A stretch of 32,000 nucleotides of DNA from an uncultured Clostridia bacterium (GTDB lineage Bacteria; Bacillota; Clostridia; Christensenellales; Aristaeellaceae), in contig CAKUFG010000020.1 in NCBI GenBank assembly GCA_934647235.1, positions 15,699 through 47,698 on the forward strand, written 5' to 3'. The notes below the pieces were generated by a model. It made no database searches. It was not told where the DNA came from and saw nothing but the letters and a program-made list of their open reading frames with translations. Both the position numbers and the translations under genes were made by a program. Positions 4,304 to 29,285 of this stretch are shown here, one piece after another; position 1 is the stretch's first letter; every line of letters starts with the position of its first letter.

Positions 4304-4912
4304 TTATACAGGAATGCTCTGCCGGCCGGTGATCCACTCCCGCAGGCAGCGGAAATCCTCCGGGGTGTCGCTGTCCAGCACCGTGCCGCGATCCAGCACC
4401 GGCAGGCTGCGGATGGGCGCGCCGCTGCTTTCCATTGCGCCGCGCAGGCCGCCCGGCCCGTCATAGGCGATTAAATAATCCATCCATTCTGCCTGGATGA
4501 AAACGGGGTGGCCATACTGCCCGTGCCAGTTGGGGCGCACAAAATCGCCGGCAGTATCGCGCAGCATGGCCGCCGTGGCATGGCATACCAGCGGCACGTC
4601 GGCGGGGGAGATCATCACCCGCTCTGTGCGCCCCCGCAGGGCGGCAAGCGCCAGACGCAGCGAGTCCATCTGCTGGGTGGAGGCGTAAGCGGGATTGAAT
4701 ACAAACTCTACGTCCGCTTCCCCTGCCAGCGCGGCTTCCAGCGCCTTGCGCCGGTGCCCGGTGACGATTACGATGGGCGATGCGCCGCAGCGGCGCATCA
4801 TGCAGATGACGCGCTGGATCATGGTTTGCCCGTTAATGCGCAGCAAGGGCTTGAAATCGCCCATGCGGCTGGACAGACCGGCGGCCAGAATGATACCGGA
4901 CAGCTTTTGCAT
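4304..4912 (-). CDS. MobA/MocA-like nucleotidyltransferase (molybdenum cofactor cytidylyl/guanylyltransferase family)
   Basis: Trimmed to MQKLSGIILAAGLSSRMGDFKPLL, the LAAGxSxRMG NTP-transferase motif. A GGAGG RBS lies upstream. A Mo-hydroxylase operon is in the neighbourhood. Confidence 0.75.
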   Translation of the reverse strand: MQKLSGIILAAGLSSRMGDFKPLLRINGQTMIQRVICMMRRCGASPIVIVTGHRRKALEAALAGEADVEFVFNPAYASTQQMDSLRLALAALRGRTERVMISPADVPLVCHATAAMLRDTAGDFVRPNWHGQYGHPVFIQAEWMDYLIAYDGPGGLRGAMESSGAPIRSLPVLDRGTVLDSDTPEDFRCLREWITGRQSIPV

Positions 4913-14526: not shown

Positions 14527-16536
14527 TTACCCCTTAAATTTTTGCAGTGTAAACTTGCCGTTGAGCGTTGATACACATATATATCTGAGCCGTGTTTCTT
14601 TTGTGCTTTCCAGGAACCCAACAGGAACAAACCAAGCATTAACAATGCTGAAACCGTTTGACTGCTTTACCAAAGAGAAAAGTTCTTGCAATGAATCCAG
14701 AATTGCCATCAGCTTTTGTGCGTCCGCTTTTATGCTAATCTGTTCGGCCTGAAGGCATCTTGATTCATGATGAGCGGTATTATCCTTCCACCATGGACTT
14801 AAATGATCTTTGATCTGGCTATATAATGCATCAATCTTTTTAGAAATGTCTTCATCAAGTTGGAAGGGCCACCGCAGATCGATGCTTATACTGCCTTCCC
14901 ACTCGGTTTGCTCCGATATTTCCGGTAGATATGCTGTTTCCAGCACTTGTTTTCTCTGCGGTGATAGTGTACTCAAATCCTGGCGAAATATCCATCGGTT
15001 TTCTTGCGCACTGTACAGAATGAAGCTTCCAATAGATCTTTGCGCAATTAAAGGCCGGAACCAGTTTTTCGTTGTATAATGGTATTCACCGCACTTAGTT
15101 AATTTGTCTGGTTGACCATTATCGAACTGATAATCGGAAGAATAAGATACATCTGTTGCTTCAGTGCGGATTTTTCTTATCAGTGATCGGAACAGCTCAG
15201 TATTCCAGGGATATTCAAAGCTTAAGCTTTCTTGGCCAACAGTGAGTTTCATTCGATTGATTGACAAACGGCCGGATTCATTTTCAAATTCTCTGCAAAT
15301 AGAGAACAGATGATGTCGTAGAGCACTACGATCCTTTATGCTGTCTGCAGGAATAGTAACTCGCTCCCAGCATCTGGCTGTTACTGGAAGAACTTTGAAG
15401 TGTTTTATGCGGACATATGTTTCAAGCTGCTTTTCCTGCTCATATTCCTGCAAAACTGATACATCATCTAACAAAAGACGACTCAATGCTTTATACGTTA
15501 GGCTGCCCTTATAGCCAGTTTTGATCTGCAGGAGCTTTTTTAACTTGGCAGCGCTGTCTTTGCTTGCATGAGTAATGAAAGAGACTTTACCCATTACAGA
15601 TGCAAATTGACGGCGCATTTCCCAAAGTTCAATATTTGTTTTATTTTGCAGAAGATATCCAATTTCCTTGCTTGTTTCGATTATATATCTATGACTCACT
15701 GTGATTCTGTTTTTTCTTGTTGAGGTTTTTACCATGTTTAAGCCAAGAAGATGTATTGCGTCGCCTTCTGTTTTCAATTGGCGAATATAAGTTTTCTTCT
15801 TATTCAACTCAAGTTTATGATTTGTGATCTCTGCACGAAGTATTTCAAGCGCCTGCTCCAGCTTTTCTTTTGCATCAACGCCTGTGGTGGAAATAATGAA
15901 GTCATCTGCATAGCGCGTATAACAGATGCCCTTCAGCATGCTCATGCGTTCGTCAAGATCCTTAAGAAAGATATCTGACAAAATCGGTGATGTCACAAAA
16001 CCAATCGGAAGATGACCTTTATAAAAGCATGTAGAGAGAAATTTTTTTAAGAGAGCCGTTCTTGACTTTGGCCATGAGTGGACAGCCATCAAGCGATCAA
16101 ACAACAGATCAAAAGAAACTGAATCAAAATATGAATGGATGTCAGTTTTTAAATAGGTATCTGAACGCAGATGTAATTTGAGGCAGGAATCAGTGCTTTT
16201 TCCTTTCTGATACGCAAATGATTTGGCATCAGGCTCGTAAACTCCGCCAAGAGCAAGCGCAAACAATCTATGAAAATGACGAAGCATTTGTCCTTCAGGT
16301 GTTGCCTGATACGTTATGATTTGTCTGATCTTTCCGTTTACGATTGTTTTATATAGAAAGACATACTTATCCGGGTTGAGCAGATAATTTTGAATGGTGC
16401 GTTTAAACAAAGAAGAATACTGAGTAAAAAAACTAGGGAATGAAGCCATGCCTGACACTTCTCCGCAGGAGGAATATAGGCCGTATTTATCACAATGGAC
16501 GTTTCCCAGCAAGGTTTTAATCAATTGGTTATCCAT
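14527..16536 (-). CDS. Reverse transcriptase (aa ~60-275) fused to a ~330-aa C-terminal domain of unknown function
   Basis: The RT motifs are in order: KIRQIITYQATPEG (1/2), YLKTDIHSYFDSV (3/A), LPIGFVTSPILSDIFL (4/B), YTRYADDFII (5/C, with YADD at nt 15901-15912), LELNKKKT (6) and HLLGLNM (7). The start ATG overlaps the upstream helicase stop by 8 nt (ATGGATAA). Confidence 0.85.
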   Translation of the reverse strand: MDNQLIKTLLGNVHCDKYGLYSSCGEVSGMASFPSFFTQYSSLFKRTIQNYLLNPDKYVFLYKTIVNGKIRQIITYQATPEGQMLRHFHRLFALALGGVYEPDAKSFAYQKGKSTDSCLKLHLRSDTYLKTDIHSYFDSVSFDLLFDRLMAVHSWPKSRTALLKKFLSTCFYKGHLPIGFVTSPILSDIFLKDLDERMSMLKGICYTRYADDFIISTTGVDAKEKLEQALEILRAEITNHKLELNKKKTYIRQLKTEGDAIHLLGLNMVKTSTRKNRITVSHRYIIETSKEIGYLLQNKTNIELWEMRRQFASVMGKVSFITHASKDSAAKLKKLLQIKTGYKGSLTYKALSRLLLDDVSVLQEYEQEKQLETYVRIKHFKVLPVTARCWERVTIPADSIKDRSALRHHLFSICREFENESGRLSINRMKLTVGQESLSFEYPWNTELFRSLIRKIRTEATDVSYSSDYQFDNGQPDKLTKCGEYHYTTKNWFRPLIAQRSIGSFILYSAQENRWIFRQDLSTLSPQRKQVLETAYLPEISEQTEWEGSISIDLRWPFQLDEDISKKIDALYSQIKDHLSPWWKDNTAHHESRCLQAEQISIKADAQKLMAILDSLQELFSLVKQSNGFSIVNAWFVPVGFLESTKETRLRYICVSTLNGKFTLQKFKG

Positions 16537-18250
16537 TTTTTGCAGCCTCCCGAATTTTTACATCTAATGTCTGACGAGCTTTGTCTGAAACGACCATGTA
16601 TAATGCGCTGCGGGCCCGTGTCATACCAACATAAAGCAGATTCATTCTCTGATCATGGTCGAGACTGTCAAAATCAACTAATACAACAATGGGACTTTCT
16701 AGTCCTTTGAAAGCGTGGACTGTACTAAACAATATTTTTCCTTTTCTGTCTGTTCGTTCCGTGGAAACAGGAAAAGCAGGATCAAGATCGGAAGCCACTG
16801 ATCTATCAAAGCGAGAGGCGGATAGGATTACAATATCATCAAAACATATTTGTTCTTTTTTTAGCTGACGGAGAATGGATTCGACAATTTCTAGCTGAGC
16901 CTGGCTTTTTTTGTATCCGCGAATCTCTACCTCTGCACCGCGCATCTCCATTTTTCGAAACTTTGTATGCGTTCCAAAGATAGAATCTATTTTTTCGATA
17001 ATAGCCTGAGAATTACGACAATTGTTTATCAGAGAATAACTGGCAAAATGGCTATGGTATTCGTCAAGAGACTTTGCAATCTTTTCATAATCCGTATGAG
17101 CAAAATAGAGGTTTTGCTTATCTGCATCCATGAAAAAATACCAATTGCCATTTTGCAGTCCACCCGGGAGCATAAGGTCTATAGCTTCGAGATAGTGCGT
17201 TTCAAAAACATCCTGAGCCTCATCAATGATCAGCACGTCAAAAGGTTCATGAGCTTGCTCTATTAAATGCTCCGCATATTGAGTCGGCAACACGTCCGAA
17301 TAATACTTTGCCGTATCGTTTTTTCGCATCTGCTCCATTGTAGGAGAAAGACCTGCCAGGATAGCCTTTTCCATGTAATCAAGCAAACTATCGCAAACAA
17401 TTGAAGTATCATTGCCGATGCTCTCCTGCAGCCATCCTGCCAGGTTTCTATTATAGCAGAATAGACCAACTTTTTTCCCTTGGCCAGCGAAGGTGCGTGC
17501 AGATTCCAATGCCAATACTGTTTTGCCCGTTCCAGCACTTCCCTTAATTAAACATCTTTCATTCTCAAAAAGCCCTTCAAAAACCATTTGCTGGTTTTCA
17601 GTCAGAGTAATAATCTGCTTTTCGACACTTCGGATCTGACTTGAGATTGCTGGTTTAAAGTCATAGTTGGGCCGCAGAATGGCTGCGATTGCATTCGTCT
17701 GCTGTTTGTTAGGCACAAAAATCCGAGCATTTTTGCGACTCTTCCAGAATCCGGCAAGCTTCAGTAAATATGCTTTAATATCATAGTAGTTATCAATATC
17801 TGCGATTTGATAATCATCTAAATCCGGTATGGAAAAGCGCCCATGAACGGTTGAGTCAGGAAACACTACTCCAAAACCAAACAGACTCCATTGAAGGTTC
17901 TCTGCGTTATTTTTTTCAATAAAACTCATTAATGCGTGCATGGCATTGTTAGCTTCTGTTACCGGATTCTTGATTATATTCTGAATGCCAAACCGGTCTG
18001 TAGAGTACCACACGCCATTCTCATAGGAGATCCTGCCGCCCTTAACCTCTAAGGCAAAGGTCCCTCCATCTGGGAAAATTACGACAAAGTCGGCTTCACC
18101 TTGGGACTGAGTAGGATGTCTGGCAATTCCAACCGAATGGAGCACATACCAATCATCTGTGTCAGGCATGTTACGAAGCATAGTAAACAGCTTACGTTCC
18201 GCAGAGGACTTTGTATCCTCATCAATAGAAGCGGGAATCATGCGAGCCAT
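16529..18250 (-). CDS. NERD (PD-(D/E)xK nuclease-related) domain fused to an SF1 (UvrD/Dda-like) helicase, a Nhi-like architecture
   Basis: The N-terminus has the NERD core GEADFVVIFPDGGTFALEVKGG. The helicase motifs are Walker A GSAGTGKTVLA, Walker B/II VLIIDEAQD, TVHAFKGLE and LLYVGMTRARSALYMV. A GAGGTGATAAT RBS precedes the ATG. Confidence 0.85.
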   Translation of the reverse strand: MARMIPASIDEDTKSSAERKLFTMLRNMPDTDDWYVLHSVGIARHPTQSQGEADFVVIFPDGGTFALEVKGGRISYENGVWYSTDRFGIQNIIKNPVTEANNAMHALMSFIEKNNAENLQWSLFGFGVVFPDSTVHGRFSIPDLDDYQIADIDNYYDIKAYLLKLAGFWKSRKNARIFVPNKQQTNAIAAILRPNYDFKPAISSQIRSVEKQIITLTENQQMVFEGLFENERCLIKGSAGTGKTVLALESARTFAGQGKKVGLFCYNRNLAGWLQESIGNDTSIVCDSLLDYMEKAILAGLSPTMEQMRKNDTAKYYSDVLPTQYAEHLIEQAHEPFDVLIIDEAQDVFETHYLEAIDLMLPGGLQNGNWYFFMDADKQNLYFAHTDYEKIAKSLDEYHSHFASYSLINNCRNSQAIIEKIDSIFGTHTKFRKMEMRGAEVEIRGYKKSQAQLEIVESILRQLKKEQICFDDIVILSASRFDRSVASDLDPAFPVSTERTDRKGKILFSTVHAFKGLESPIVVLVDFDSLDHDQRMNLLYVGMTRARSALYMVVSDKARQTLDVKIREAAKNG

Positions 18251-18259
18251 ATTATCACC

Positions 18260-18373
18260 TCATAAAAAAGCAGAAGTGTTACTTAGAAAATAGGACACCT
18301 AAAAGTACTTTTAGGTGTACCAGCCACTGCTTACGCTGTCTCCACCTTAGGTGAAAATCTAACACTTCTGTAC
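18260..18373 (-). ncRNA. Structured 5' leader or candidate ncRNA of the NERD-helicase/RT operon
   Basis: An 11-bp outer stem pairs CAGAAGTGTTA (18271-18281) with TAACACTTCTG (18360-18370). It encloses a perfect 24-nt palindrome ACACCTAAAAGTACTTTTAGGTGT (18295-18318). On the minus strand the closing stem is followed by U6 (18264-18269) and then the SD. The predicted TSS lies at the 5' foot of the outer stem. Confidence 0.5.
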
Positions 18374-18378
18374 CATTA

Positions 18379-18407
18379 ATTATATAGGATATTGCAAGAA
18401 ATGTCAA
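18379..18407 (-). promoter_or_regulatory. Consensus SigA promoter driving the leader and the NERD-helicase/RT operon
   Basis: The minus strand reads TTGACA (18407-18402), a 17-nt spacer, then TATAAT (18384-18379). Both hexamers match consensus perfectly. Confidence 0.7.
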
Positions 18408-18552
18408 TCTTTCGGGATTCACGTTCAGAACATTTTGCTTCTTGATTATGGATAGTCTGTACAGTCGGGAGTATAGCTGTTCTCAACGCACCCAGAGGAC
18501 GGCATAGGCCAAGCAGGAATACCGCTCAAAGGTGGTATAGGTTTCATCAGGC

Positions 18553-18816
18553 TTAGAAGCGCCGTCGTCCAGCGGCAATGAAGCTGAAATAGTCGCGTGC
18601 GGCAGCGATATGCGCAGGACCTCTCGCTTCCATGGCTTTATCATATTTGCTTTTCGAATAGATAAGCCTATAATTATAGTTGCTGTCTATACCATGTTGA
18701 CAGCATATCTCTTCCCGCTGCTGCTTGTCAGGAAAACGGCTGTGCAGAAAGATATGGCAAAGATAGGCTTGACTGCAAACGGAAGGCCGATCTTGATAAA
18801 GCCTGCCTTCTATCAT
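18553..18816 (-). CDS. Hypothetical 87-aa ORF, possibly a gene fragment
   Basis: This is an ORF only. There is no clear RBS and no motif I can assign. The YDKAMEARGPAHIAAARDYF stretch is faintly AP2/HNH-like. Confidence 0.2.
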   Translation of the reverse strand: MIEGRLYQDRPSVCSQAYLCHIFLHSRFPDKQQREEICCQHGIDSNYNYRLIYSKSKYDKAMEARGPAHIAAARDYFSFIAAGRRRF

Positions 18817-23075: not shown

Positions 23076-26000
23076 TCAAACCATGACCTTATTCATCAGC
23101 TGCTGGAAGTCATCCACGTGGTCGTATGTGACCATGCCATTTGACAGTGTTGTAAAGAGCTTCTTCGCGCAGTCGATCTTTGCTTTCTCAATCGGGCGCA
23201 GGTTTAGACTGTCCATTGTTCCCTTCGTTTCCGCAACGAAGTAGATGTGCCGTACAGTGCCCTCATGGAACACGATTGCCCAGTCCGGCGAATAATGCCC
23301 GACCGGCGTAGGAATGGAGAACCCTCTCGGCAGCTTCGCGTAGATGAATACATCCTGAGAACCATCCAGCGATTTGACAAAGCGGCGCTCGACGCTATCC
23401 TCTGCTGTGCCGTCAGTGAAGACATAATCCTGAATGGCTTTGTCGGCATGGAATGCTTGGTCGAAGGTCTTTCCGTGTTTTTCAGCAGTAAAGATACTGC
23501 TGTCATAACTACCCTCGATCTGGTCGTAGGTAATATGTTCCACAATCATGGTTGCCTTCTGTTCCTTGATCAGACGGATAACCTTGGAAATGAATTCCTC
23601 CGGGTTATTGCGGAACATATAGAATTTAGCCGGGTTAATGCCCTTTAGAACGGCAGCAGCAGAACGGCGCGTAAGCACAGTGCCTTCCGCAATTTTGCCG
23701 ACGAGATCATACTTGACCTGGCTGGTTTCCGCATGTTTCAGCGTTTCAGTATGTGTTTTTGCCGCCTCAAAGCTATTGCCGGTTCGCATCTCATCGCCGG
23801 AGATGCTTGCCTTTTGACCGGCAACAGAAACAGTATACTGCAGCTGGCTGACGAACAGCTCACTGTTGATCGCCGCGACAGCTTTACGGATCAGCTCGTC
23901 GCTGTCGAAATCAACCGTATACGCATACTTGTGATTGATCGCCGTCCAGAGATTCTGGAATTCCTTTTTGTAGAAGCGGTCATTGAGCGGATTCTCCGGC
24001 GCAGGCGTCTTATTGCCATCAGCAAACATTTCTTTGAGAACCTTATCATCGAAAATTGCCTGTACCAGCTTATGGATGCTTTCACCTATCGGCTGAAGCC
24101 CCTCGGGCAGCGGCTTGAGACGATCAGCAGCCACATCATCACGATAATCCTGCGTAATGCCGTCATCTTCATCCACATAGTTGTTGCGGACGAGGTATTG
24201 GTAGATTTTTCTCGCATCCGACGCATTGATCTTTGCGGTAGAGCCATCTGCCATAATGACGTTTTTGCCCTCAAAGTACTCAATGCTTGCCTTCCGGGGA
24301 CGATCATACAGCACAGCACGAGTTTCGTCCTGCAGAGCAGCGACGAAATCCGCATAGCCCTCACTGGCAATGACCGTCAGGGTATTCAGAACATGAACGT
24401 CTGCACCGACGGTTTCCGCGTCCATGCGCTCACCAGCCTGATTGACGCACAGGCGCAGTCCGCGGCCAACCTCCTGCCGCTTCTGCGTGGTGCTGTCGCC
24501 GCCGTGCTTGAGCGTGCAAATCTGGAACACATTCGGGTTGTCCCAGCCCTCGCGCAGTGCGGAGTGCGAGAAGATGAAGCGTGTCGGCTCCTCAAAGCTG
24601 AGCAGGCGCTCTTTGTTCTTGAGAATCAGGTCATACGCGGAAATATCATCGCTGAACTCATTGCCGCGCTTGAGTTGGCTGTCGATGGCACGCCCGGTCT
24701 TCTTGTCGATGCTGAAATAGCCGCGATGCGTAGCATGAACATCAATGCCATCGAGATATGCCACATACTCCGGATCAAGCAGAGTACGGTATCCGTTCAT
24801 GACCGAAACGTATTCTTCCTCAAAAATACGCCCGAATTCGCCGAGCGCCTCATTGCCATCCGCATCGTATTGCCGGTAATGCGCTACCTCGTCGATGAAG
24901 AACAGCGACAGCGTCTTAATGCCCTTGTGGAACAGCTGCGCTTCCTTCTGAAAGTGAGAGATGATCGTTTCCCGAATCTGCACACGGCGCTTGTCGCTTT
25001 CGGAGACGTCGCCGATGACTTCGCCCTTGTGGATCATATCGCCATTGATGAAGGTGACGGTTCCATCAATGGGATCGATCTGTGAAACGGAAAAGCCACG
25101 GTACTGTTCCATTTCGCCGGAGATGAAATAGAGGTTATCTCCAACGGTCAGCGGGCGAGTTTCGCGGTTGATGGACTTGTTGTATCGGATCTCCAATTCC
25201 ATGCGCACCTTCGGCGGCTTTTTCGGAGAGAGGACGAAGCTCTCAAGGTACAGATAACCGTCCGTACCGCGAAAATTCTTTACTTCAAAGCCCTTGACCT
25301 CAATGCGTTTAACCAGACGCTTGTTATAAGCGTCCAGCGCGTCCAGCACATAGATCAGGTTGTGCCGCTCCTTGTGTGTTGCGGAGTAGTTGAGCGTGAA
25401 AAGCGGATTGAAGGATTTCAGCGCCTTCTGCGTCACGTCGCCGCCCATCTTCTGGGGTTCATCCATGATGATGATCGGGCGATTTGCGGCAATGACGTCA
25501 ATCGGGCGGCGGCTCTGAAACTCGTCGCGCTTCGAGTAGATGATGCGCGCTTCCTTGCTCTTGCCGTCCTCTTTCAAAGAAGCGGCGAAAGCCTGCGTGT
25601 TGATAATCATCACATTGATGCCGCTGTCGGCAGAAAAGCTGTCCAGCTGGTTCAGGTTGGCGCTGGAATAGATGAAGAACCGCGCCTTCTTGCCGTAATG
25701 CTCCATGAAATGGTCAACGGTGATCTCGAAGGACTTCTTCACGCCCTCGCGAATGGCGATAGACGGCACGACCACGATGAACTTGCTCCAGCCATAGCGC
25801 TTGTTCAGCTCGAACATCGTCTTGATATACACATAGGTTTTGCCCGTGCCGGTTTCCATTTCCACGTCCAGCGCACAGCGTCCCAGCCCCTTCGCAAGGG
25901 AAGCGGACTGATAAATCTCGTTGTCCTGCTGCACGTCGCGGATGTTTTTCAGCAGCTGCTCATCGGTCAGCTGCAGCATTTCGTTCAGATAGCCGGTATC

Positions 26001-26195
26001 GTCTACTTCATCCATCGAAATCTGATCAGGAGGAAACAGGCTCATCTGCTGATCCACAGGCGCGAGCACAGGCTTGGTCTCGCCCAAATCGCGGCGATAG
26101 GACACGCCATCGGAATAGGGCTGTCCTTTGAAGGCCCTCACGACGCTGTCAACGGCATCGGTCTGGTATTGCTGTATCTTAAATCGAAATTTCAT
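23076..26195 (-). CDS. res: Type III restriction-modification system endonuclease (Res) subunit
   Basis: The N-terminus MKFRFKIQQYQTDAVDSVVRAFKGQPY is typical of Type III Res. The SF2 helicase motifs are METGTGKTYVY (I), IIIMDEPQKM (II), NYSATH (III) and QEVGRGLRL (VI). The C-terminal PD-(D/E)xK motif is YSPDWAIV...IYFVAETKG. Confidence 0.85.
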   Translation of the reverse strand: MKFRFKIQQYQTDAVDSVVRAFKGQPYSDGVSYRRDLGETKPVLAPVDQQMSLFPPDQISMDEVDDTGYLNEMLQLTDEQLLKNIRDVQQDNEIYQSASLAKGLGRCALDVEMETGTGKTYVYIKTMFELNKRYGWSKFIVVVPSIAIREGVKKSFEITVDHFMEHYGKKARFFIYSSANLNQLDSFSADSGINVMIINTQAFAASLKEDGKSKEARIIYSKRDEFQSRRPIDVIAANRPIIIMDEPQKMGGDVTQKALKSFNPLFTLNYSATHKERHNLIYVLDALDAYNKRLVKRIEVKGFEVKNFRGTDGYLYLESFVLSPKKPPKVRMELEIRYNKSINRETRPLTVGDNLYFISGEMEQYRGFSVSQIDPIDGTVTFINGDMIHKGEVIGDVSESDKRRVQIRETIISHFQKEAQLFHKGIKTLSLFFIDEVAHYRQYDADGNEALGEFGRIFEEEYVSVMNGYRTLLDPEYVAYLDGIDVHATHRGYFSIDKKTGRAIDSQLKRGNEFSDDISAYDLILKNKERLLSFEEPTRFIFSHSALREGWDNPNVFQICTLKHGGDSTTQKRQEVGRGLRLCVNQAGERMDAETVGADVHVLNTLTVIASEGYADFVAALQDETRAVLYDRPRKASIEYFEGKNVIMADGSTAKINASDARKIYQYLVRNNYVDEDDGITQDYRDDVAADRLKPLPEGLQPIGESIHKLVQAIFDDKVLKEMFADGNKTPAPENPLNDRFYKKEFQNLWTAINHKYAYTVDFDSDELIRKAVAAINSELFVSQLQYTVSVAGQKASISGDEMRTGNSFEAAKTHTETLKHAETSQVKYDLVGKIAEGTVLTRRSAAAVLKGINPAKFYMFRNNPEEFISKVIRLIKEQKATMIVEHITYDQIEGSYDSSIFTAEKHGKTFDQAFHADKAIQDYVFTDGTAEDSVERRFVKSLDGSQDVFIYAKLPRGFSIPTPVGHYSPDWAIVFHEGTVRHIYFVAETKGTMDSLNLRPIEKAKIDCAKKLFTTLSNGMVTYDHVDDFQQLMNKVMV

Positions 26196-27241
26196 GGCTT
26201 GTGGTTCACCACCTGTTCCAGCATAAGGAAACGGTCAAAATCGCTTTCGTACAGGCGATCCTGAATAATCCGATACTTTTCATATTCCGTCTCCGCATGG
26301 AGCTTTGCTTGTTCCGCAGTGATCTTGCCGGGGCCTGTCAGCAGCTCGTTTCCGTTAAACTCCAGAAAGCCGTCCAGACGCTTCGCCCAGTCCTCCATGC
26401 TCATGGGAATCTTGCGCTCCGCCTGCAATTGGGCATAATCCAGATAAAGAGAGACGATGCGCTCCAGATAGTGCATTTCCTGTTCGCTTAAATAGTTCTT
26501 GGCCACTGTCACGTCTGTTTTCAGGATCTTGCCATCCGGCGCATTCTCCCATGTGGTCAGCCCCATATGCTCCTTGTTGGCGTCCGCACGCTCCACGATG
26601 AGCTCCGCAGCCGTGTGTCTGTGGACGGCAAAATGCATCTTGTTCTGCACCGTCTGAAAGAACAGGCGGGTCGTTCTGGCGTCCTTATCGTAATCAAACG
26701 CCGTTGCGTACAGGTCTGTGACCTTCTGATAGAACTTTCGTTCGCTCAGCCGTATCTCCCGAATCTGCTCAAGCTGACGCTCGAAGTATTCGTCCGTGAA
26801 CATATGTCCCTTTTTCAGGCGCTCCACGTCCATCGTCCAGCCCTGAATGGTGTGGTCTTTCACGATCTGACCTGCCCATTTGCGGAATTGCACGGCACGC
26901 TGATTATTGACCTTGAAGCCAACGGCTATGATCATTTGCAGGTTAAAGTGAGCCACCTCACGGTTGACCTGCCGCACACCTTCTGTTTGAACTATTCGGA
27001 ATTTCCGAATAGTTGCCGCCTCAGTCAATTCTCCGTCTGCGTATATCTTTTTGATATGCTCATTGATGGTAGGAAGCCCTACATCATACAATGCCGCCAT
27101 CATCTTCTGCGTCAACCAGATGTTTTCATCCTCGTAGCGCATCTCGAAGCTGACGTCGCTCTCGCCGGTGGCGGCGACGAAGGTCAGATATTCCGCAGCA
27201 GAGCTGCGCAGGGCAAGCTCCTTTTTCTTCTGCGCCGCCAT
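26192..27241 (-). CDS. RhuM-family protein embedded between mod and res
   Basis: Strings typical of RhuM-family proteins: NIWLTQKMMAALYDVGLPTINEHIKKIY, ATIRKFRIVQTEG.RQVNREVAHFNLQMIIAVGFKVNNQRAVQFRKWA and IREIRLSERKFYQKVTDLYA. An ATGA overlap joins it to res, and a 1-nt gap separates it from mod. Confidence 0.75.
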   Translation of the reverse strand: MAAQKKKELALRSSAAEYLTFVAATGESDVSFEMRYEDENIWLTQKMMAALYDVGLPTINEHIKKIYADGELTEAATIRKFRIVQTEGVRQVNREVAHFNLQMIIAVGFKVNNQRAVQFRKWAGQIVKDHTIQGWTMDVERLKKGHMFTDEYFERQLEQIREIRLSERKFYQKVTDLYATAFDYDKDARTTRLFFQTVQNKMHFAVHRHTAAELIVERADANKEHMGLTTWENAPDGKILKTDVTVAKNYLSEQEMHYLERIVSLYLDYAQLQAERKIPMSMEDWAKRLDGFLEFNGNELLTGPGKITAEQAKLHAETEYEKYRIIQDRLYESDFDRFLMLEQVVNHKP

Positions 27242-27242
27242 A

Positions 27243-29285
27243 TCACAGCACCTTCCTTACAGTCGAGGGCGAGTAGGTCTCGAAAATCTGGTCAAAGTTG
27301 GTGGCCGTGCTGTCGTCCGCCATGGAGGCGTCGCGGAAGACGGCGTAGTAGGGCTGCCGCTTGGCAATGGCGGTCACGGTTTCGGTGGTTACGCCTTTAT
27401 CGAAGCAGGCCAGCAGGAAGCCGTCCGCCACGTCGAACACGCGCTTGCCGTCGATTTCCGTCTCGGTAATCGTGCTGGAGGGCAGCACGCCCAGCTCCAG
27501 CATGACCTGGAACAGCAGGTCTTCCGGCGTGCGGTCAGGCTTGATGTTATCCGTCGTGAAGGAAAGCAAATCCTGCCGCATTGCGTCGGGCGTGTAGTAG
27601 ACGTCCTGCATGTTGGAGGAATCCAGCCGCAGGCAGCGGAAGCCGCCGTCAAAGTCCTTGGAGAGCGCCAGCCCTGCGTCCTCACGGATTTTCTTGGCAG
27701 CGCGGCGAATGCGCTCCTTGCCGATTTCGCAGAGGTCAGAGTACTGTTGAGTCGCACTTTTTTCAGGCAATTGAACGAGAATATATCTGCGTTTGCTATC
27801 GGCATTCTTTGCGTTGATTTGCATAACGGCTTGCGCAGTAGTTGCTGACCCAGAAAAGAAATCCATGATCAAATCATTCTTTTGGGTCGAAATTTGAATA
27901 ATTCGCTCAATCAGTCGTGTTGGCTTAGGCGTATCGAAAGGTGCTTTTCCATCAAAAATCGATAGTAGTTCCTTTTTGGCTTCATCAGTATGACCGACCT
28001 CAGAACATGGCCAGAGATTTGTTACAACCTTGCCGTTTTTTTCGTCCAAGTACGTTTTCTTTGCAATACCACCATTTCCTCCACTAGTAAAATAGTACAG
28101 CGGCCAATTGCCTCTATCATACACCTCTCTTGCATTTTTGCGTGCAATTGATACATCATCGCAGAGAACAATACCCTTAACACCTGTACGCACATTATTA
28201 GGTGTTACACCACAAATAGATGCGCGTTCTGTTTCATCATTCAAATCACGCAGTTCATAGCGGCTCCACCCTTGCATGATTTTCAGCATATCATTCTGCT
28301 GATAACGCCAATGCGCTCCATTACTGGGGTATAGCATCTTTCCTGTAAAAGGATGCTGAATAGCATAAACCATTCCTTGATGCGTTGCCGCCCCGGGCGC
28401 ACAGGGATTATCTGCACGCCACAGTACAGGATCTCCATCAGGGCTCTTATACTTTTCATTCATTTCAGCCGTTCGCGGTAATTTATAAGGAATCCAATTA
28501 GCCTGACGACTGAATACAATCAAATGCTCCTTTTCGCTACTAATACCTTTTGAATCATTTCGTGGTGCATAAGTCCTTTGCCATGCAATATCGGCAACAA
28601 AGCAGCTTTCGCCAAATACGCTTTCACAGGTCTTTATGAGATTAGCAGCTTCGTGGTCATCAATACTGATAAAGATAACCCCATCCTCGCTCAGTAAATC
28701 CTTCGCCACTCTCAGCCGCGGATAAATCATGTTCAGCCAATCCGTATGGAATCTGCCGTTGCTGTCGGTGTTCTGCACGAGCTGGTTGCCCTGTTCGTCA
28801 TACTGTCCGCTTCTGCCCATATAGCTGTCCGTGTCCTCGGCAAAATCGTCCTCATAGACGAAATCGTTGCCGGTGTTGTAGGGCGGGTCGATGTAGATCA
28901 TCTTCACCTTGCCCAGATACGTTTCCCGCAGCAGCTTGAGCACGTCCAGATTGTCGCCCTCGATATACAGATTCTCGCTGTCCCAGCCGCCGGGCGTGCC
29001 ATCCTTGCCCACGCTGTCCGCCTTGATGGGGCGCAGCGTTGCCGAAATGGGCGCGTTCGCCGCCAGCATCGCCTTCTTCTTGTCCGGCCACGTAAACTGA
29101 TAGCGCTCCTCGCGGCCTTCCACAACCGTCGTGGAAATCTCCTGCATCAGCACATCCTTGTCAATGGCGCGGACAACCTCGCCGTTCTCGTTCACGGTCT
29201 CCGTGACCGCGTTCGGGAACAGCGCCGCCAGCTTTTTATAATTCTCATCCGCCAGATTGGGGGTGTGCATGGTGAGCTTATCCAT
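27243..29285 (-). CDS. mod: Type III Mod-like DNA methyltransferase (N6-adenine/N4-cytosine, beta class)
   Basis: Motif IV is MIYIDPPYNTGNDFVYEDDF. Motif I is DLIMDFFSGSATTAQAV. The large central variable region is taken as the TRD. Gene order is mod upstream of res. Confidence 0.85.
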   Translation of the reverse strand: MDKLTMHTPNLADENYKKLAALFPNAVTETVNENGEVVRAIDKDVLMQEISTTVVEGREERYQFTWPDKKKAMLAANAPISATLRPIKADSVGKDGTPGGWDSENLYIEGDNLDVLKLLRETYLGKVKMIYIDPPYNTGNDFVYEDDFAEDTDSYMGRSGQYDEQGNQLVQNTDSNGRFHTDWLNMIYPRLRVAKDLLSEDGVIFISIDDHEAANLIKTCESVFGESCFVADIAWQRTYAPRNDSKGISSEKEHLIVFSRQANWIPYKLPRTAEMNEKYKSPDGDPVLWRADNPCAPGAATHQGMVYAIQHPFTGKMLYPSNGAHWRYQQNDMLKIMQGWSRYELRDLNDETERASICGVTPNNVRTGVKGIVLCDDVSIARKNAREVYDRGNWPLYYFTSGGNGGIAKKTYLDEKNGKVVTNLWPCSEVGHTDEAKKELLSIFDGKAPFDTPKPTRLIERIIQISTQKNDLIMDFFSGSATTAQAVMQINAKNADSKRRYILVQLPEKSATQQYSDLCEIGKERIRRAAKKIREDAGLALSKDFDGGFRCLRLDSSNMQDVYYTPDAMRQDLLSFTTDNIKPDRTPEDLLFQVMLELGVLPSSTITETEIDGKRVFDVADGFLLACFDKGVTTETVTAIAKRQPYYAVFRDASMADDSTATNFDQIFETYSPSTVRKVL

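Follow-up and report, generated by a model that had tools for sequence, protein, structure and literature searches.

The DNA analysed here, a stretch of 32,000 nucleotides from an uncultured Clostridia bacterium (hereafter, the window), encodes an operon consisting of a NERD-helicase gene and a reverse transcriptase (RT) gene. Between the operon promoter and the helicase start codon lie ~110 nt that were noted, from the letters of the window, as a potentially highly structured RNA. The original prediction left two roles open for this element: an RNA that serves the RT as its cognate template or scaffold, or a terminator or leader that limits the expression of a toxic operon. The question raised by the locus is which of these the RNA is, and to what kind of RT system it belongs. 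All features described below are on the minus strand.

Boundaries and architecture of the RNA

The element is preceded by a sigma-70 promoter at 18379–18407, in which TTGACA (18407–18402) and TATAAT (18384–18379) are separated by a 17-nt spacer. A promoter scan scored it as a 12/12 match to the consensus, the sole one within 13.5–19.5 kb; across 18 copies of the element from homologous loci, the promoter reaches 12/12 in 11. The distance from the -10 hexamer to the first arm of the RNA is 8 nt in most of these copies (range 3–11), and the transcript is predicted from the sequence to start at ~18372–18371, 1–2 nt ahead of that arm. The operon forms a 40% GC island adjoining a type III R-M system, and McrBC, TIR, HNH, and integrase genes are neighbours of homologous loci.

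When positions 18260–18373 were re-read, every sequence element originally listed was present base for base. The outer helix is formed by a 5′ arm, a1 (CAGAAGTGTTA / CAGAAGUGUUA; 18360–18370), that pairs perfectly over 11 bp with a 3′ arm, a2 (TAACACTTCTG / UAACACUUCUG; 18271–18281), and this helix alone amounts to -12 to -19 kcal/mol across copies. It encloses exactly 78 nt (18359–18282) holding two hairpins, and the RNA as a whole, at ~108 nt, is very compact. The first hairpin, P1 (18339–18357), is an msr-like stem-loop of the form UUUUCACC-UAA-GGUGGAGA, with a 7–8 bp stem that is retained in 18 of 18 copies. Its sequence is nearly invariant: four copies have U-A in place of C-G at one covarying pair, two U.G wobbles never change, and the first loop base is variable. 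P1 is probably the recognition element of the RT.

The linker that follows (18319–18338) holds a weak second hairpin, CAGC...GCUG, and, in most copies, a G(U/C)AA motif. A small hairpin is seen here in most single-sequence folds, its register varies, and the consensus retains only two of its pairs. Next is the msd-like hairpin (18295–18318), a 12-pair helix (ACACCUAAAAGU/ACUUUUAGGUGU) formed by the 24-nt palindrome ACACCTAAAAGTACTTTTAGGTGT. Compensatory changes occur at 11 of its 12 pairs, 96.7% of cells are paired, and both sequence and length differ in distant copies; it is predicted to be the core of a reverse-transcribed region. Between this hairpin and a2 lies a pyrimidine-rich, single-stranded tract that ends in a conserved AG (18282–18294). 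The single-sequence fold of the window RNA gives the architecture that had been described for it, with a minimum free energy of -37.2 kcal/mol (z = -2.64). Since 4 of 200 shuffled sequences fold equally well, however, the window fold taken alone is only moderately unusual.

Directly 3′ of a2 stands a C followed by six U residues (18264–18270), a candidate leaky intrinsic terminator and candidate 3′ end of a discrete RNA. UUU is found at this place in all 18 copies, with a longer U-rich run in nearly all of them. As judged from sequence, the tract probably is both a leaky terminator and the RNA 3′ end, and leaky termination is probably part of the element's working, since no copy lacks a U-rich tract after the 3′ arm. 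The SD (AGGUGA; 18260–18255) and helicase ATG (18250–18248) come next, as read from the sequence, together spanning 18248–18260.

Conservation of the fold and linkage to the RT

A family of homologous loci was collected by exact-protein look-ups, and a covariance model was built from 12 of their leaders. The model matches the window once, at 115 bits (E about 1e-23), and matches every intact homologous locus that was collected; the intact loci with the RNA upstream of the operon are L167, L169–L182, and L001–L004. Altogether, 18 distinct copies were obtained from homologous loci, the RTs of which are 33–81% identical. Covariation among such leaders had been named as the check on the predicted fold, and the fold proved to be conserved, with compensatory changes at 18 of the 32 pairs over the 18 copies. 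A total of 98.1% of cells are paired, versus 40–53% if the partners are slid by 1–3 columns, and the observed values were reached by none of 500 shuffles. In the outer helix, all 11 pairs are 100% paired, with compensatory changes at six. RNAalifold applied to a plain MAFFT alignment returns a1/a2, P1, and the msd hairpin, and the same architecture appears in the copies' own single-sequence folds (18 of 18). The element is an RNA of the minus strand, since the U.G wobbles are invariant and the opposite strand scores ~95 bits lower with the covariance model.

Nucleotide identity to the window copy is 0.55–0.90, which is at least that of the helicase coding sequence, and the DNA beyond the promoter is unalignable between homologous loci. 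At gathering thresholds, Rfam yields zero matches in the whole window, and within 18000–18700 the only matches are chance-level ones to snoRNAs or lncRNAs (E above 1). The covariance model built here thus describes an RNA family that Rfam does not contain. In searches of other collections, the operon had no megablast match among phage and E. coli sequences. RT peptide patterns scanned against viral and metagenome contigs retrieved hardly anything but distant, generic RTs, and the family itself was not represented. TTCACCNAAGGTGGAG was matched by 67 stretches of viral contigs, which are regarded as chance matches since the covariance model accepts none of them as a true copy.

The distribution of the RNA follows that of the RT. 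For instance, it is found directly before a short RT at L005, where the helicase is absent, and it is retained at L001, where the helicase is reduced to its NERD part. The RNA is still present at L002–L004, with short RTs that lack a C-terminal domain. L181 has a second RNA as well, an orphan that precedes neither gene and is equipped with a promoter and U-tract of its own. At L168, an intact RT lacks the RNA; this locus is cut short within the helicase gene, where an integrase element sits. The element is a conserved non-coding RNA gene linked to the RT rather than to the helicase.

The RT and its NERD-helicase partner

The RT (14527–16536; 669 aa; Pfam RVT_1) consists of a retron-like RT domain (~1–340) and an orphan C-terminal domain of ~325 aa. 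YADD is invariant across the RT family, as are the other polymerase motifs. Retron RTs are its best PDB sequence and PADLOC matches, and they make up the top 14 matches of a fold search, with target TM values of 0.59–0.76 for stand-alone RTs and 0.38–0.39 for two longer Eco2/Ec67 fusion chains; DRT9, DRT2, and AbiA matches rank below these 14. The best NCBIfam match is retron_St85_RT, at 112 bits and below its curated cutoff of 235; Drt3a scores 67 bits, Drt4 41, AbiA 34, and Drt2 33 (against a model cutoff of 390). Region X reads CLxxH, compared with NAxxH in retron RTs, and region Y reads LLG, compared with VTG. H122 and G265 are invariant, and the retained H and G are the residues named most conserved by a retron census (PMC7736814). 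By sequence and by fold, the RT is closest to retron RTs, and it does not reach the curated retron score cutoff.

The C-terminal domain is confined to 17 clusters worldwide. Its structural model is a mixed alpha/beta fold with 11 strands interleaved with helices, and the domain has no PADLOC or Pfam match, nor does any PDB fold match it at E below 1e-3. PADLOC has no model that covers the N-terminus, thumb, or C-terminal domain of the RT. An apparently stand-alone version of the C-terminal domain (P0107) occurs on a 1-kb contig fragment.

The first gene of the operon (16529–18250; 573 aa) encodes a NERD nuclease domain joined to an SF1/UvrD-like helicase (Pfam NERD, UvrD_C_2, and SLFN-g3_helicase). 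Its translation shows a D...ExK-type motif and the Walker A sequence GSAGTGKT, and residues 1–553 align to positions 1–510 of the 519-position PADLOC model RTasNERD-Hel (4.8e-60). By analogy, the NERD-helicase is predicted to be the effector. This near full-length match is a likeness to UG34, since a protein with NERD plus helicase (cluster 485) adjoins 7 of 17 UG34 RTs (Mestre et al. 2022, PMC9226505). The same study predicts no ncRNA for UG34, which belongs to UG/Abi class 1 (PMC9226505). The present system appears to differ from UG34, compared here by its published description, in that its RT is nearer to retron RTs than to Abi/DRT RTs, with Abi/DRT models scoring far below retron models. 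It also differs from UG/Abi class 1 in its C-terminal domain, which is mixed alpha/beta rather than alpha-repeat, so an RT of UG/Abi lineage with an alpha-repeat C-terminus is not what is found here.

Among the effectors of the 13 retron types described so far, a NERD plus UvrD-like helicase is likewise missing, and the census of those types (PMC7736814) uses neither the word "helicase" nor "NERD". A literature search found no retron or DRT paper on this RNA, no retron paper with such an effector, and, on RT-NERD-helicase systems, nothing beyond one UG34 remark. These comparisons suggest that a helicase family linked to UG34 in catalogues also serves a retron-like RT with its own RNA.

Retron-like geometry and alternative roles

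Retrons are defined in part by a conserved guanosine beside inverted repeats, the 2′-OH of which primes synthesis (PMC8989520). At this locus, inverted repeats a1 and a2 enclose the ncRNA as an 11-bp helix in all 18 copies, and an unpaired G directly 3′ of a1 (G18359) is a candidate priming (branching) G. The original prediction had compared this residue only loosely with a branching G; it proves invariant (18 of 18 copies) and, by position, equivalent to that of Ec86, so that both position and invariance agree with the definition. Facing it, directly 5′ of a2, is G18282, also a G in 18 of 18 copies and preceded by A in 17, and A18283 is, by analogy, the predicted first templating base. In Ec86, the corresponding junctions read a1 ...CCCUUA-G... 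and ...CUGAC-G-UAAGGG a2, with the unpaired Gs placed as they are here; in 48 E. coli genomes, the Ec86 sequence was confirmed at 100% beside the effector gene of the retron St85 family. Extension of the a1-G...G-a2 motif search to the upstream regions of more distant RTs was limited by a 7-bp pattern that is too unspecific in AT-rich DNA.

Other parts of the locus show the same likeness. The order of an msr stem-loop followed by an msd hairpin is found in P1 (7–8 bp) and the 12-bp hairpin in msd position, the latter within the 10–50 bp reported for retron msd stems (PMC7736814). A 5′ stem-loop region followed by a variable hairpin in msd position is the arrangement of Retron-Eco1/Ec86 (type II-A), the gene order ncRNA-effector-RT is that of St85/Ec86-type systems, and the defence-island context is also retron-like. 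There are differences as well: the RNA is unusually compact, with only 78 nt inside its arms, many members bear the orphan 325-aa C-terminal RT domain, and, compared with classical retrons, the RNA is apparently its own transcription unit with a conserved U-tract end. To our knowledge, a conserved terminator-like U-tract is not a classical retron feature.

The reading favoured here, with confidence somewhat above even, is that the element serves the RT as cognate ncRNA and represents a compact RNA of the msr-msd type, belonging to a retron-like system outside the described types. The template or scaffold role originally proposed is supported by the covarying fold, by co-occurrence with the RT when the helicase is missing (L005), by the junction Gs, and by the retron-like RT. 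The sequence is best read as specifying an RNA transcribed as a discrete, leakily terminated unit. Transcription would start from the near-consensus promoter, 1–2 nt before a1; P1 and the msd hairpin would fold first, and the emerging a2 would then close the 11-bp outer helix. With that helix closed and the U-tract directly behind it, most transcripts would probably end after a2, giving a discrete RNA of ~105–110 nt, and the minority that read through would allow translation of the NERD-helicase and RT. The RT would probably bind the almost invariant P1 hairpin, and the 2′-OH of G18359, opposite G18282 at the foot of a1/a2, would prime DNA synthesis. From there, the cDNA would grow leftwards, first along the single-stranded tract and then across the covarying hairpin, and would itself be a hairpin of ~40–55 nt. 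By analogy, the RT-RNA-DNA complex may hold or license the NERD-helicase nuclease until a phage perturbs the complex. We infer termination at the U-tract, 2′-OH priming, cDNA synthesis and its extent, and the effector and defence roles from these features. Several observations speak against a retron: for an msd, the hairpin ACAUCUAAAA varies unusually little; the RT scores below the curated cutoff, has CLxxH/LLG motifs, and is joined by a UG34-like NERD-helicase that no described retron type has; the RT of the truncated locus L168 lacks the RNA; and the conserved U-tract could mean that the RNA is mainly a regulator or scaffold.

A cognate ncRNA that works by a non-retron mechanism, as in DRT2, DRT3, and DRT9, is considered unlikely. 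The RNA would then be a scaffold and/or template for protein- or 3′-OH-primed synthesis of repetitive or non-branched DNA, and the helicase might aid strand displacement. Linkage of a conserved, structured RNA to an RT would fit any RT-ncRNA system, a structured ncRNA beside a defence RT is shared with DRT2/DRT9/DRT3 (UG2, UG28, UG3+UG8), the helicase resembles a partner of the UG/Abi group, and the NAxxH and VTG motifs are incomplete in the RT. Moreover, a separate unit with a very strong promoter and a terminator-like tract recalls the upstream ncRNAs of UG2 and UG28, which are highly expressed and required by the defence RT (PMC9226505). However, the RT appears to be of a different clade, clearly nearer to retron RTs (112 bits, against 67 for Drt3a, 41 for Drt4, 34 for AbiA, and 33 for Drt2), and the DRT9, DRT2, and AbiA folds fall below 14 retron RTs. 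A DRT2/DRT9-type system in particular was rejected, as the RT is not of UG2/UG28 type by score or structure and the RNA has no Rfam match. The invariant Gs at the foot of a1/a2 constitute a retron priming geometry, and we know of no DRT2, DRT9, or DRT3 ncRNA that is enclosed by such a helix with a junction G. Nor is there a homopolymer template or a conserved template-jumping repeat: CACCTAA occurs twice in the window (18353–18347 and 18317–18311), and this repeat is window-specific.

Distinctly less probable is a structural or regulatory RNA that is not reverse-transcribed, such as an antitoxin or scaffold that silences the nuclease through binding to the RT and helicase. The near invariance of P1 and several unpaired positions suggests protein contacts that would suit such a partner, as would the element's promoter and U-tract, which make it a discrete unit, and the existence of an orphan copy. 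Against this role, the family keeps YADD and the other polymerase motifs invariant, the most variable and covarying part of the RNA is a hairpin exactly in msd position, and a role without priming leaves the junction Gs hard to account for.

A purely cis-acting leader, whether an attenuator or an SD-sequestering switch that limits a toxic helicase-RT operon, is highly improbable. A stable helix that is followed by a U-tract and placed downstream of the sole promoter, ahead of the helicase start, does resemble a Rho-independent terminator or attenuator, and the stem (-12 to -19 kcal/mol) with its UUU is seen in 18 of 18 copies. The terminator fallback of the original prediction holds in part, for the U-rich tract itself, and is improbable as the whole role of the element, given that the RNA precedes an RT without helicase at L005 and neither gene at L181. 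The "loop" of such a terminator would be a 78-nt, multi-branched, conserved RNA, compared with a canonical 3–8 nt, and there is neither a conserved antiterminator alternative, as an attenuator would have, nor confinement to the operon. An attenuator also has no need of invariant unpaired foot Gs or an invariant 19-nt hairpin, and there are zero matches to Rfam cis-regulatory families. As for sequestration of the SD by CACCU and the alternative CACCUAA folds, neither proposal is borne out: homologues do not keep the second heptamer or an SD of the AGGUG form, while pairs within the hairpin covary. The SDs of homologues are of a generic GGAGG type (for example, GGAGGC, GAGGAA, and GGGAGC) and would not pair with CACCU, and the hairpin-preserving substitutions break the alternative pairings. 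The inner palindrome plus CCTATTTTCT was also tried as a terminator and rejected, its T-run not being conserved in homologues.

A diversity-generating retroelement was rejected since no template/variable repeat pair was found. Across the rest of the window and 14 homologous loci, 12-mers of the RNA recur at just two loci: at L181, in its second copy of the RNA, and at L005, in 18 nt of a coding region.

Returning to the msr-msd-type reading, the RNA apparently marks a retron-like defence system with a nuclease-helicase partner, undescribed so far, because a conserved RNA gene with template-RNA hallmarks accompanies a retron-like RT. About evenly balanced is the broader proposal of an unclassified retron type of gut and rumen Clostridia, in which a core of RNA and RT is variously joined by a NERD-SF1 helicase, NERD alone, or the orphan C-terminal RT domain. 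Its ncRNA would, at ~108 nt, be among the most compact known and would be an independent, terminator-bounded small RNA driven from a consensus promoter. If so, a nuclease-helicase effector class and a new RT architecture would be added to retron-like systems, from anaerobic Firmicutes that are poorly represented among studied retrons. Production of the RNA as an independent, terminator-bounded unit would uncouple the amount of RNA or msDNA from that of the toxic effector. If ~45 nt of the RNA is reverse-transcribed, it could suit a compact scaffold for ssDNA production in vivo; because it is small and sharply bounded, from a promoter-set 5′ end to a U-tract 3′ end, it is easy to test and attractive for this use. 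The natural variants already offer a ready dissection of the core, with loci representing RNA and RT alone, the addition of NERD only or of the NERD-helicase, RTs that have or lack the C-terminal domain, and a second RNA that is an orphan.

The RNA element and its operon

The element lies on the minus strand, between a promoter that matches the consensus at 12 of 12 positions, the sole such match within 13.5-19.5 kb, and the start of a helicase gene. The promoter consists of a -35 hexamer (TTGACA, 18407-18402), a 17-nt spacer, and a -10 hexamer (TATAAT, 18384-18379), and is separated by 8 nt from a1 (CAGAAGTGTTA, 18370-18360), the 5′ arm of an outer helix. A G (18359) directly follows a1 and precedes an inner hairpin, P1 (UUUUCACC-UAA-GGUGGAGA, 18357-18339), a 20-nt linker, and a 24-nt palindrome (ACACCTAAAAGT/ACTTTTAGGTGT, 18318-18295). 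A 12-nt pyrimidine-rich tract with A as its last base then leads to a second G (18282), the 3′ arm a2 (TAACACTTCTG, 18281-18271), C plus T6 (18270-18264), a Shine-Dalgarno (SD) sequence (AGGTGA, 18260-18255), and the helicase ATG (18250). On a minus-strand reading, all sequence details of the original prediction proved correct, including the 78 nt between the arms and two CACCTAA heptamers. The single-sequence minimum free energy fold (-37.2 kcal/mol) is the one that had been described, and its z-score of -2.64 is suggestive, but alone not compelling. A search of the leader against Rfam gave no match.

Two minus-strand genes follow and overlap by 8 nt. The first (18250-16529) encodes a 573-aa protein with a NERD nuclease-related domain and then an SF1/UvrD-type helicase, and shows a full-length match to RTasNERD-Hel in PADLOC (4.8e-60). 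The second (16536-14527) encodes a 669-aa reverse transcriptase (RT; Pfam RVT_1). Both belong to an island of 40% GC that spans about 14.2-19 kb and is flanked on one side by host genes of 60% GC (xanthine-dehydrogenase family, SpoVA) and on the other by a 50-54% GC block with a type III restriction-modification module (23076-29285, minus strand). The latter comprises Res (ResIII plus RE_endonuc, 1039 aa), a RhuM-family protein, and Mod (N6_N4_Mtase, 680 aa). Together, the RT operon and the restriction-modification genes constitute a defence-island setting.

Conservation and covariation of the RNA

Roughly 100 homologues of the RT, none of them named, occur in public metagenomes, mostly in rumen and gut Clostridia. 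Contigs were fetched for RTs ranging from 81% down to 33% identity, plus six MAG loci. Each intact locus has the element, placed after a consensus promoter and ahead of the helicase start. Compared with the window copy, it is at least as similar in nucleotide sequence (identity 0.55-0.90) as the helicase coding sequence is, while DNA immediately past the promoter cannot be aligned (0.20-0.38).

Twelve leaders were aligned with MAFFT and folded with RNAalifold, yielding three helices from the plain alignment: a1/a2, P1, and the palindromic hairpin. A covariance model built from this result finds one copy in the window (115 bits) and recovered untrained copies in L002-L005 and L182, together with a second copy in L181, whereas none of 67 chance matches to a sequence pattern in viral contigs scored. 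The covariation anticipated for homologous leaders is present: across 18 distinct copies, 98.1% of cells fall in standard pairs, versus 40-53% after the 3′ partners have been displaced by 1-3 columns. Compensatory double changes affect 18 of 32 pairs (6 in a1/a2, 1 in P1, and 11 of the 12 in the hairpin), and none of 500 shuffles came up to the real alignment in either paired percentage or covariation score. Because the 18-copy alignment was fitted to the covariance model, structure is favoured in it; the plain MAFFT alignment, however, had already given these helices, and each of the 18 copies takes the same architecture when folded singly. Opposite-strand scores are about 95 bits lower and the U.G wobbles of P1 are invariant, both of which indicate an RNA of the minus, operon-sense strand.

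Linkage to the reverse transcriptase and leader alternatives

The components of the operon separate in natural variants. Three loci (L002-L004) combine the RNA and helicase with a short RT (319-331 aa) that has no C-terminal domain. In a minimal version (L005:5838-6975), the RNA directly precedes a 337-aa RT, likewise without that domain; the helicase is absent and the neighbours are housekeeping genes. In L001 (5388-7854), the helicase part has been deleted, and the RNA is followed by a NERD-only ORF of about 125 aa and then by a long RT (646 aa). L181 possesses an orphan RNA copy (4352-4466, 108 bits) about 60 nt past the RT stop. This copy has a promoter (TTGACT-17-TATAAT) and a U-tract of its own, and its hairpin differs in sequence from that of the first copy (473-589). 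One RT may serve two RNAs here, or the orphan could be what is left of a second system. Among the RT loci, L168 alone lacks the RNA, and its identity to L167 begins only inside the helicase gene; an integrase/HTH_17 element (L168:1-3052) replaces the ncRNA and the 5′ half of the helicase gene, through either mobile-element truncation or an assembly chimera.

This pattern does not fit a leader whose only role is to tune expression of the helicase, and the element is very probably the cognate ncRNA of the RT. The suggestion that it is a terminator survives as a probable part of the mechanism, and not as a rival to an RNA role: all 18 copies have a U-rich tract after a2, and the a1/a2 helix alone contributes -12 to -19 kcal/mol. 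The promoter is perfect (12/12) in 11 of the 18 copies, and the distance from the -10 end to a1 (8 nt in most, range 3-11) places the expected transcript start 1-2 nt before the helix. The U-tract, the stable helix, and the orphan copy argue for a discrete RNA of about 105-110 nt, which would be produced by ending at the U-tract, while read-through transcripts would permit translation of the helicase and RT. Sequestration of the SD by CACCU finds no support, as the SDs of homologues (GGAGGC, GAGGAA, GGGAGC) would not pair with it. The alternative folds envisaged for CACCUAA were rejected as well; in most homologues the second heptamer reads ACAUCUAA, with a compensating change within the hairpin.

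Several minor features accompany these loci. L005 is flanked by a PocR/AraC regulator and a PrmC-like methyltransferase fusion, and an 18-nt stretch of its RNA recurs inverted in a coding region (1552-1569), probably by chance. Past the RT, L004 (5090-5400) has a stretch (GGAAAGTCCGGGC...) that by eye resembles the RNase P RNA of bacteria. In L170, L171, L178, and L181, large LRR_5/DUF6273 surface-protein genes are found downstream of the RT, with an LRR_5 gene following the orphan copy in L181; these may merely mirror related genomic neighbourhoods.

Comparison with retrons

Retron RTs start from the 2′-OH of a conserved guanosine beside the inverted repeats (PMC8989520), and a retron RNA is made up of msr stem-loops and then an msd hairpin with 10-50 bp (PMC7736814). 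The unpaired Gs after a1 and before a2 are each present in 18 of 18 copies, with an A preceding the latter in 17. The same junction occurs in Ec86 (Retron-Eco1), as ...CCCUUA-G at a1 and ...CUGAC-G-UAAGGG... at a2; the Ec86 sequence was confirmed at 100% identity in 48 E. coli genomes, under a gene annotated as a retron St85-family effector. P1 is almost invariant, with freedom limited to its first loop base, whereas the hairpin in the msd position is variable and covarying, the division of labour expected by analogy with a retron RNA.

The RT itself is retron-like. Its closest PDB sequence matches are retron RTs (Kva2, Ec86, Ec78, Ec83, Eco8, and others), as are the top 14 fold matches of its AlphaFold model (pLDDT 84). 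Target TM is 0.59-0.76 for stand-alone RTs and 0.38-0.39 for two longer Eco2/Ec67 fusion chains among the fold matches; group II intron, DGR, DRT9, DRT2, and AbiA enzymes rank below the retron RTs. The top NCBIfam model, retron_St85_RT, scores 112 bits, under its cutoff of 235, followed by Drt3a (67), Drt4 (41), AbiA (34), and Drt2 (33). YADD is invariant in the family, and the retron NAxxH and VTG positions read CLxxH and LLG, retaining only the H and G rated most conserved in a retron census (PMC7736814). The orphan C-terminal domain (325 aa, residues 345-669; window 14530-15504, minus strand) is confidently modelled (pLDDT 84) as mixed alpha/beta with repeated strand-helix units. Neither PADLOC nor Pfam has a match for it, and no PDB fold reaches an E below 1e-3. 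Among 1.84 billion representative proteins, just 17 clusters contain it, nearly always as a fusion to this RT.

Covariation, RT linkage, the junction Gs, and the retron-like RT thus support the original prediction of a cognate template or scaffold RNA, and the features of retron membership that can be tested in silico at the RNA level are all present. By analogy, the element would work like a retron msr-msd RNA. In the retron-style use that is moderately favoured, the 2′-OH of G18359 would prime DNA synthesis, and the product would be a hairpin cDNA about 40-55 nt in length. The helicase-nuclease might, by analogy only, be the effector of a defence system.

The window system belongs to none of the 13 described retron types. 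The text of the retron census contains neither "helicase" nor "NERD" (PMC7736814), and literature searches found no retron with a NERD-helicase. The sole published trace is that 7 of 17 UG34 RTs (UG/Abi class 1) adjoin a NERD-helicase, in a source that made no ncRNA prediction for UG34 and called the defence association inconclusive (PMC9226505). Class 1 UG/Abi RTs typically have an alpha-repeat C-terminal domain; the window RT has none, is nearer to retron RTs, and does not resemble enzymes of class 1, although it is set apart from UG34 by description and not by sequences. UG34 may be the same RT family under another label. No PADLOC model covers the RT N-terminus, thumb, or C-terminal domain.

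Similar junctions were observed beside more distant RTs. In L183 (4733-4995), GGGGUUA-G and G-UAACCCC-UUUU bracket 233 nt, and roughly 10 nt separate their end from the start of the RT. The shared junction hints at a possible longer sister ncRNA, but such 7-bp stems often arise by chance in AT-rich DNA. In a Mycoplasmatota chromosome (CP074575.1; L006:4609-4817), a 16-bp inverted repeat (AAATAAAATAGTCTTA-G ... G-TAAGACTATTTTATTT, then TTTT) with the junction of the window RNA lies upstream of an RT of 29% identity, at a distance of about 1 kb, and is probably another retron-type RNA.
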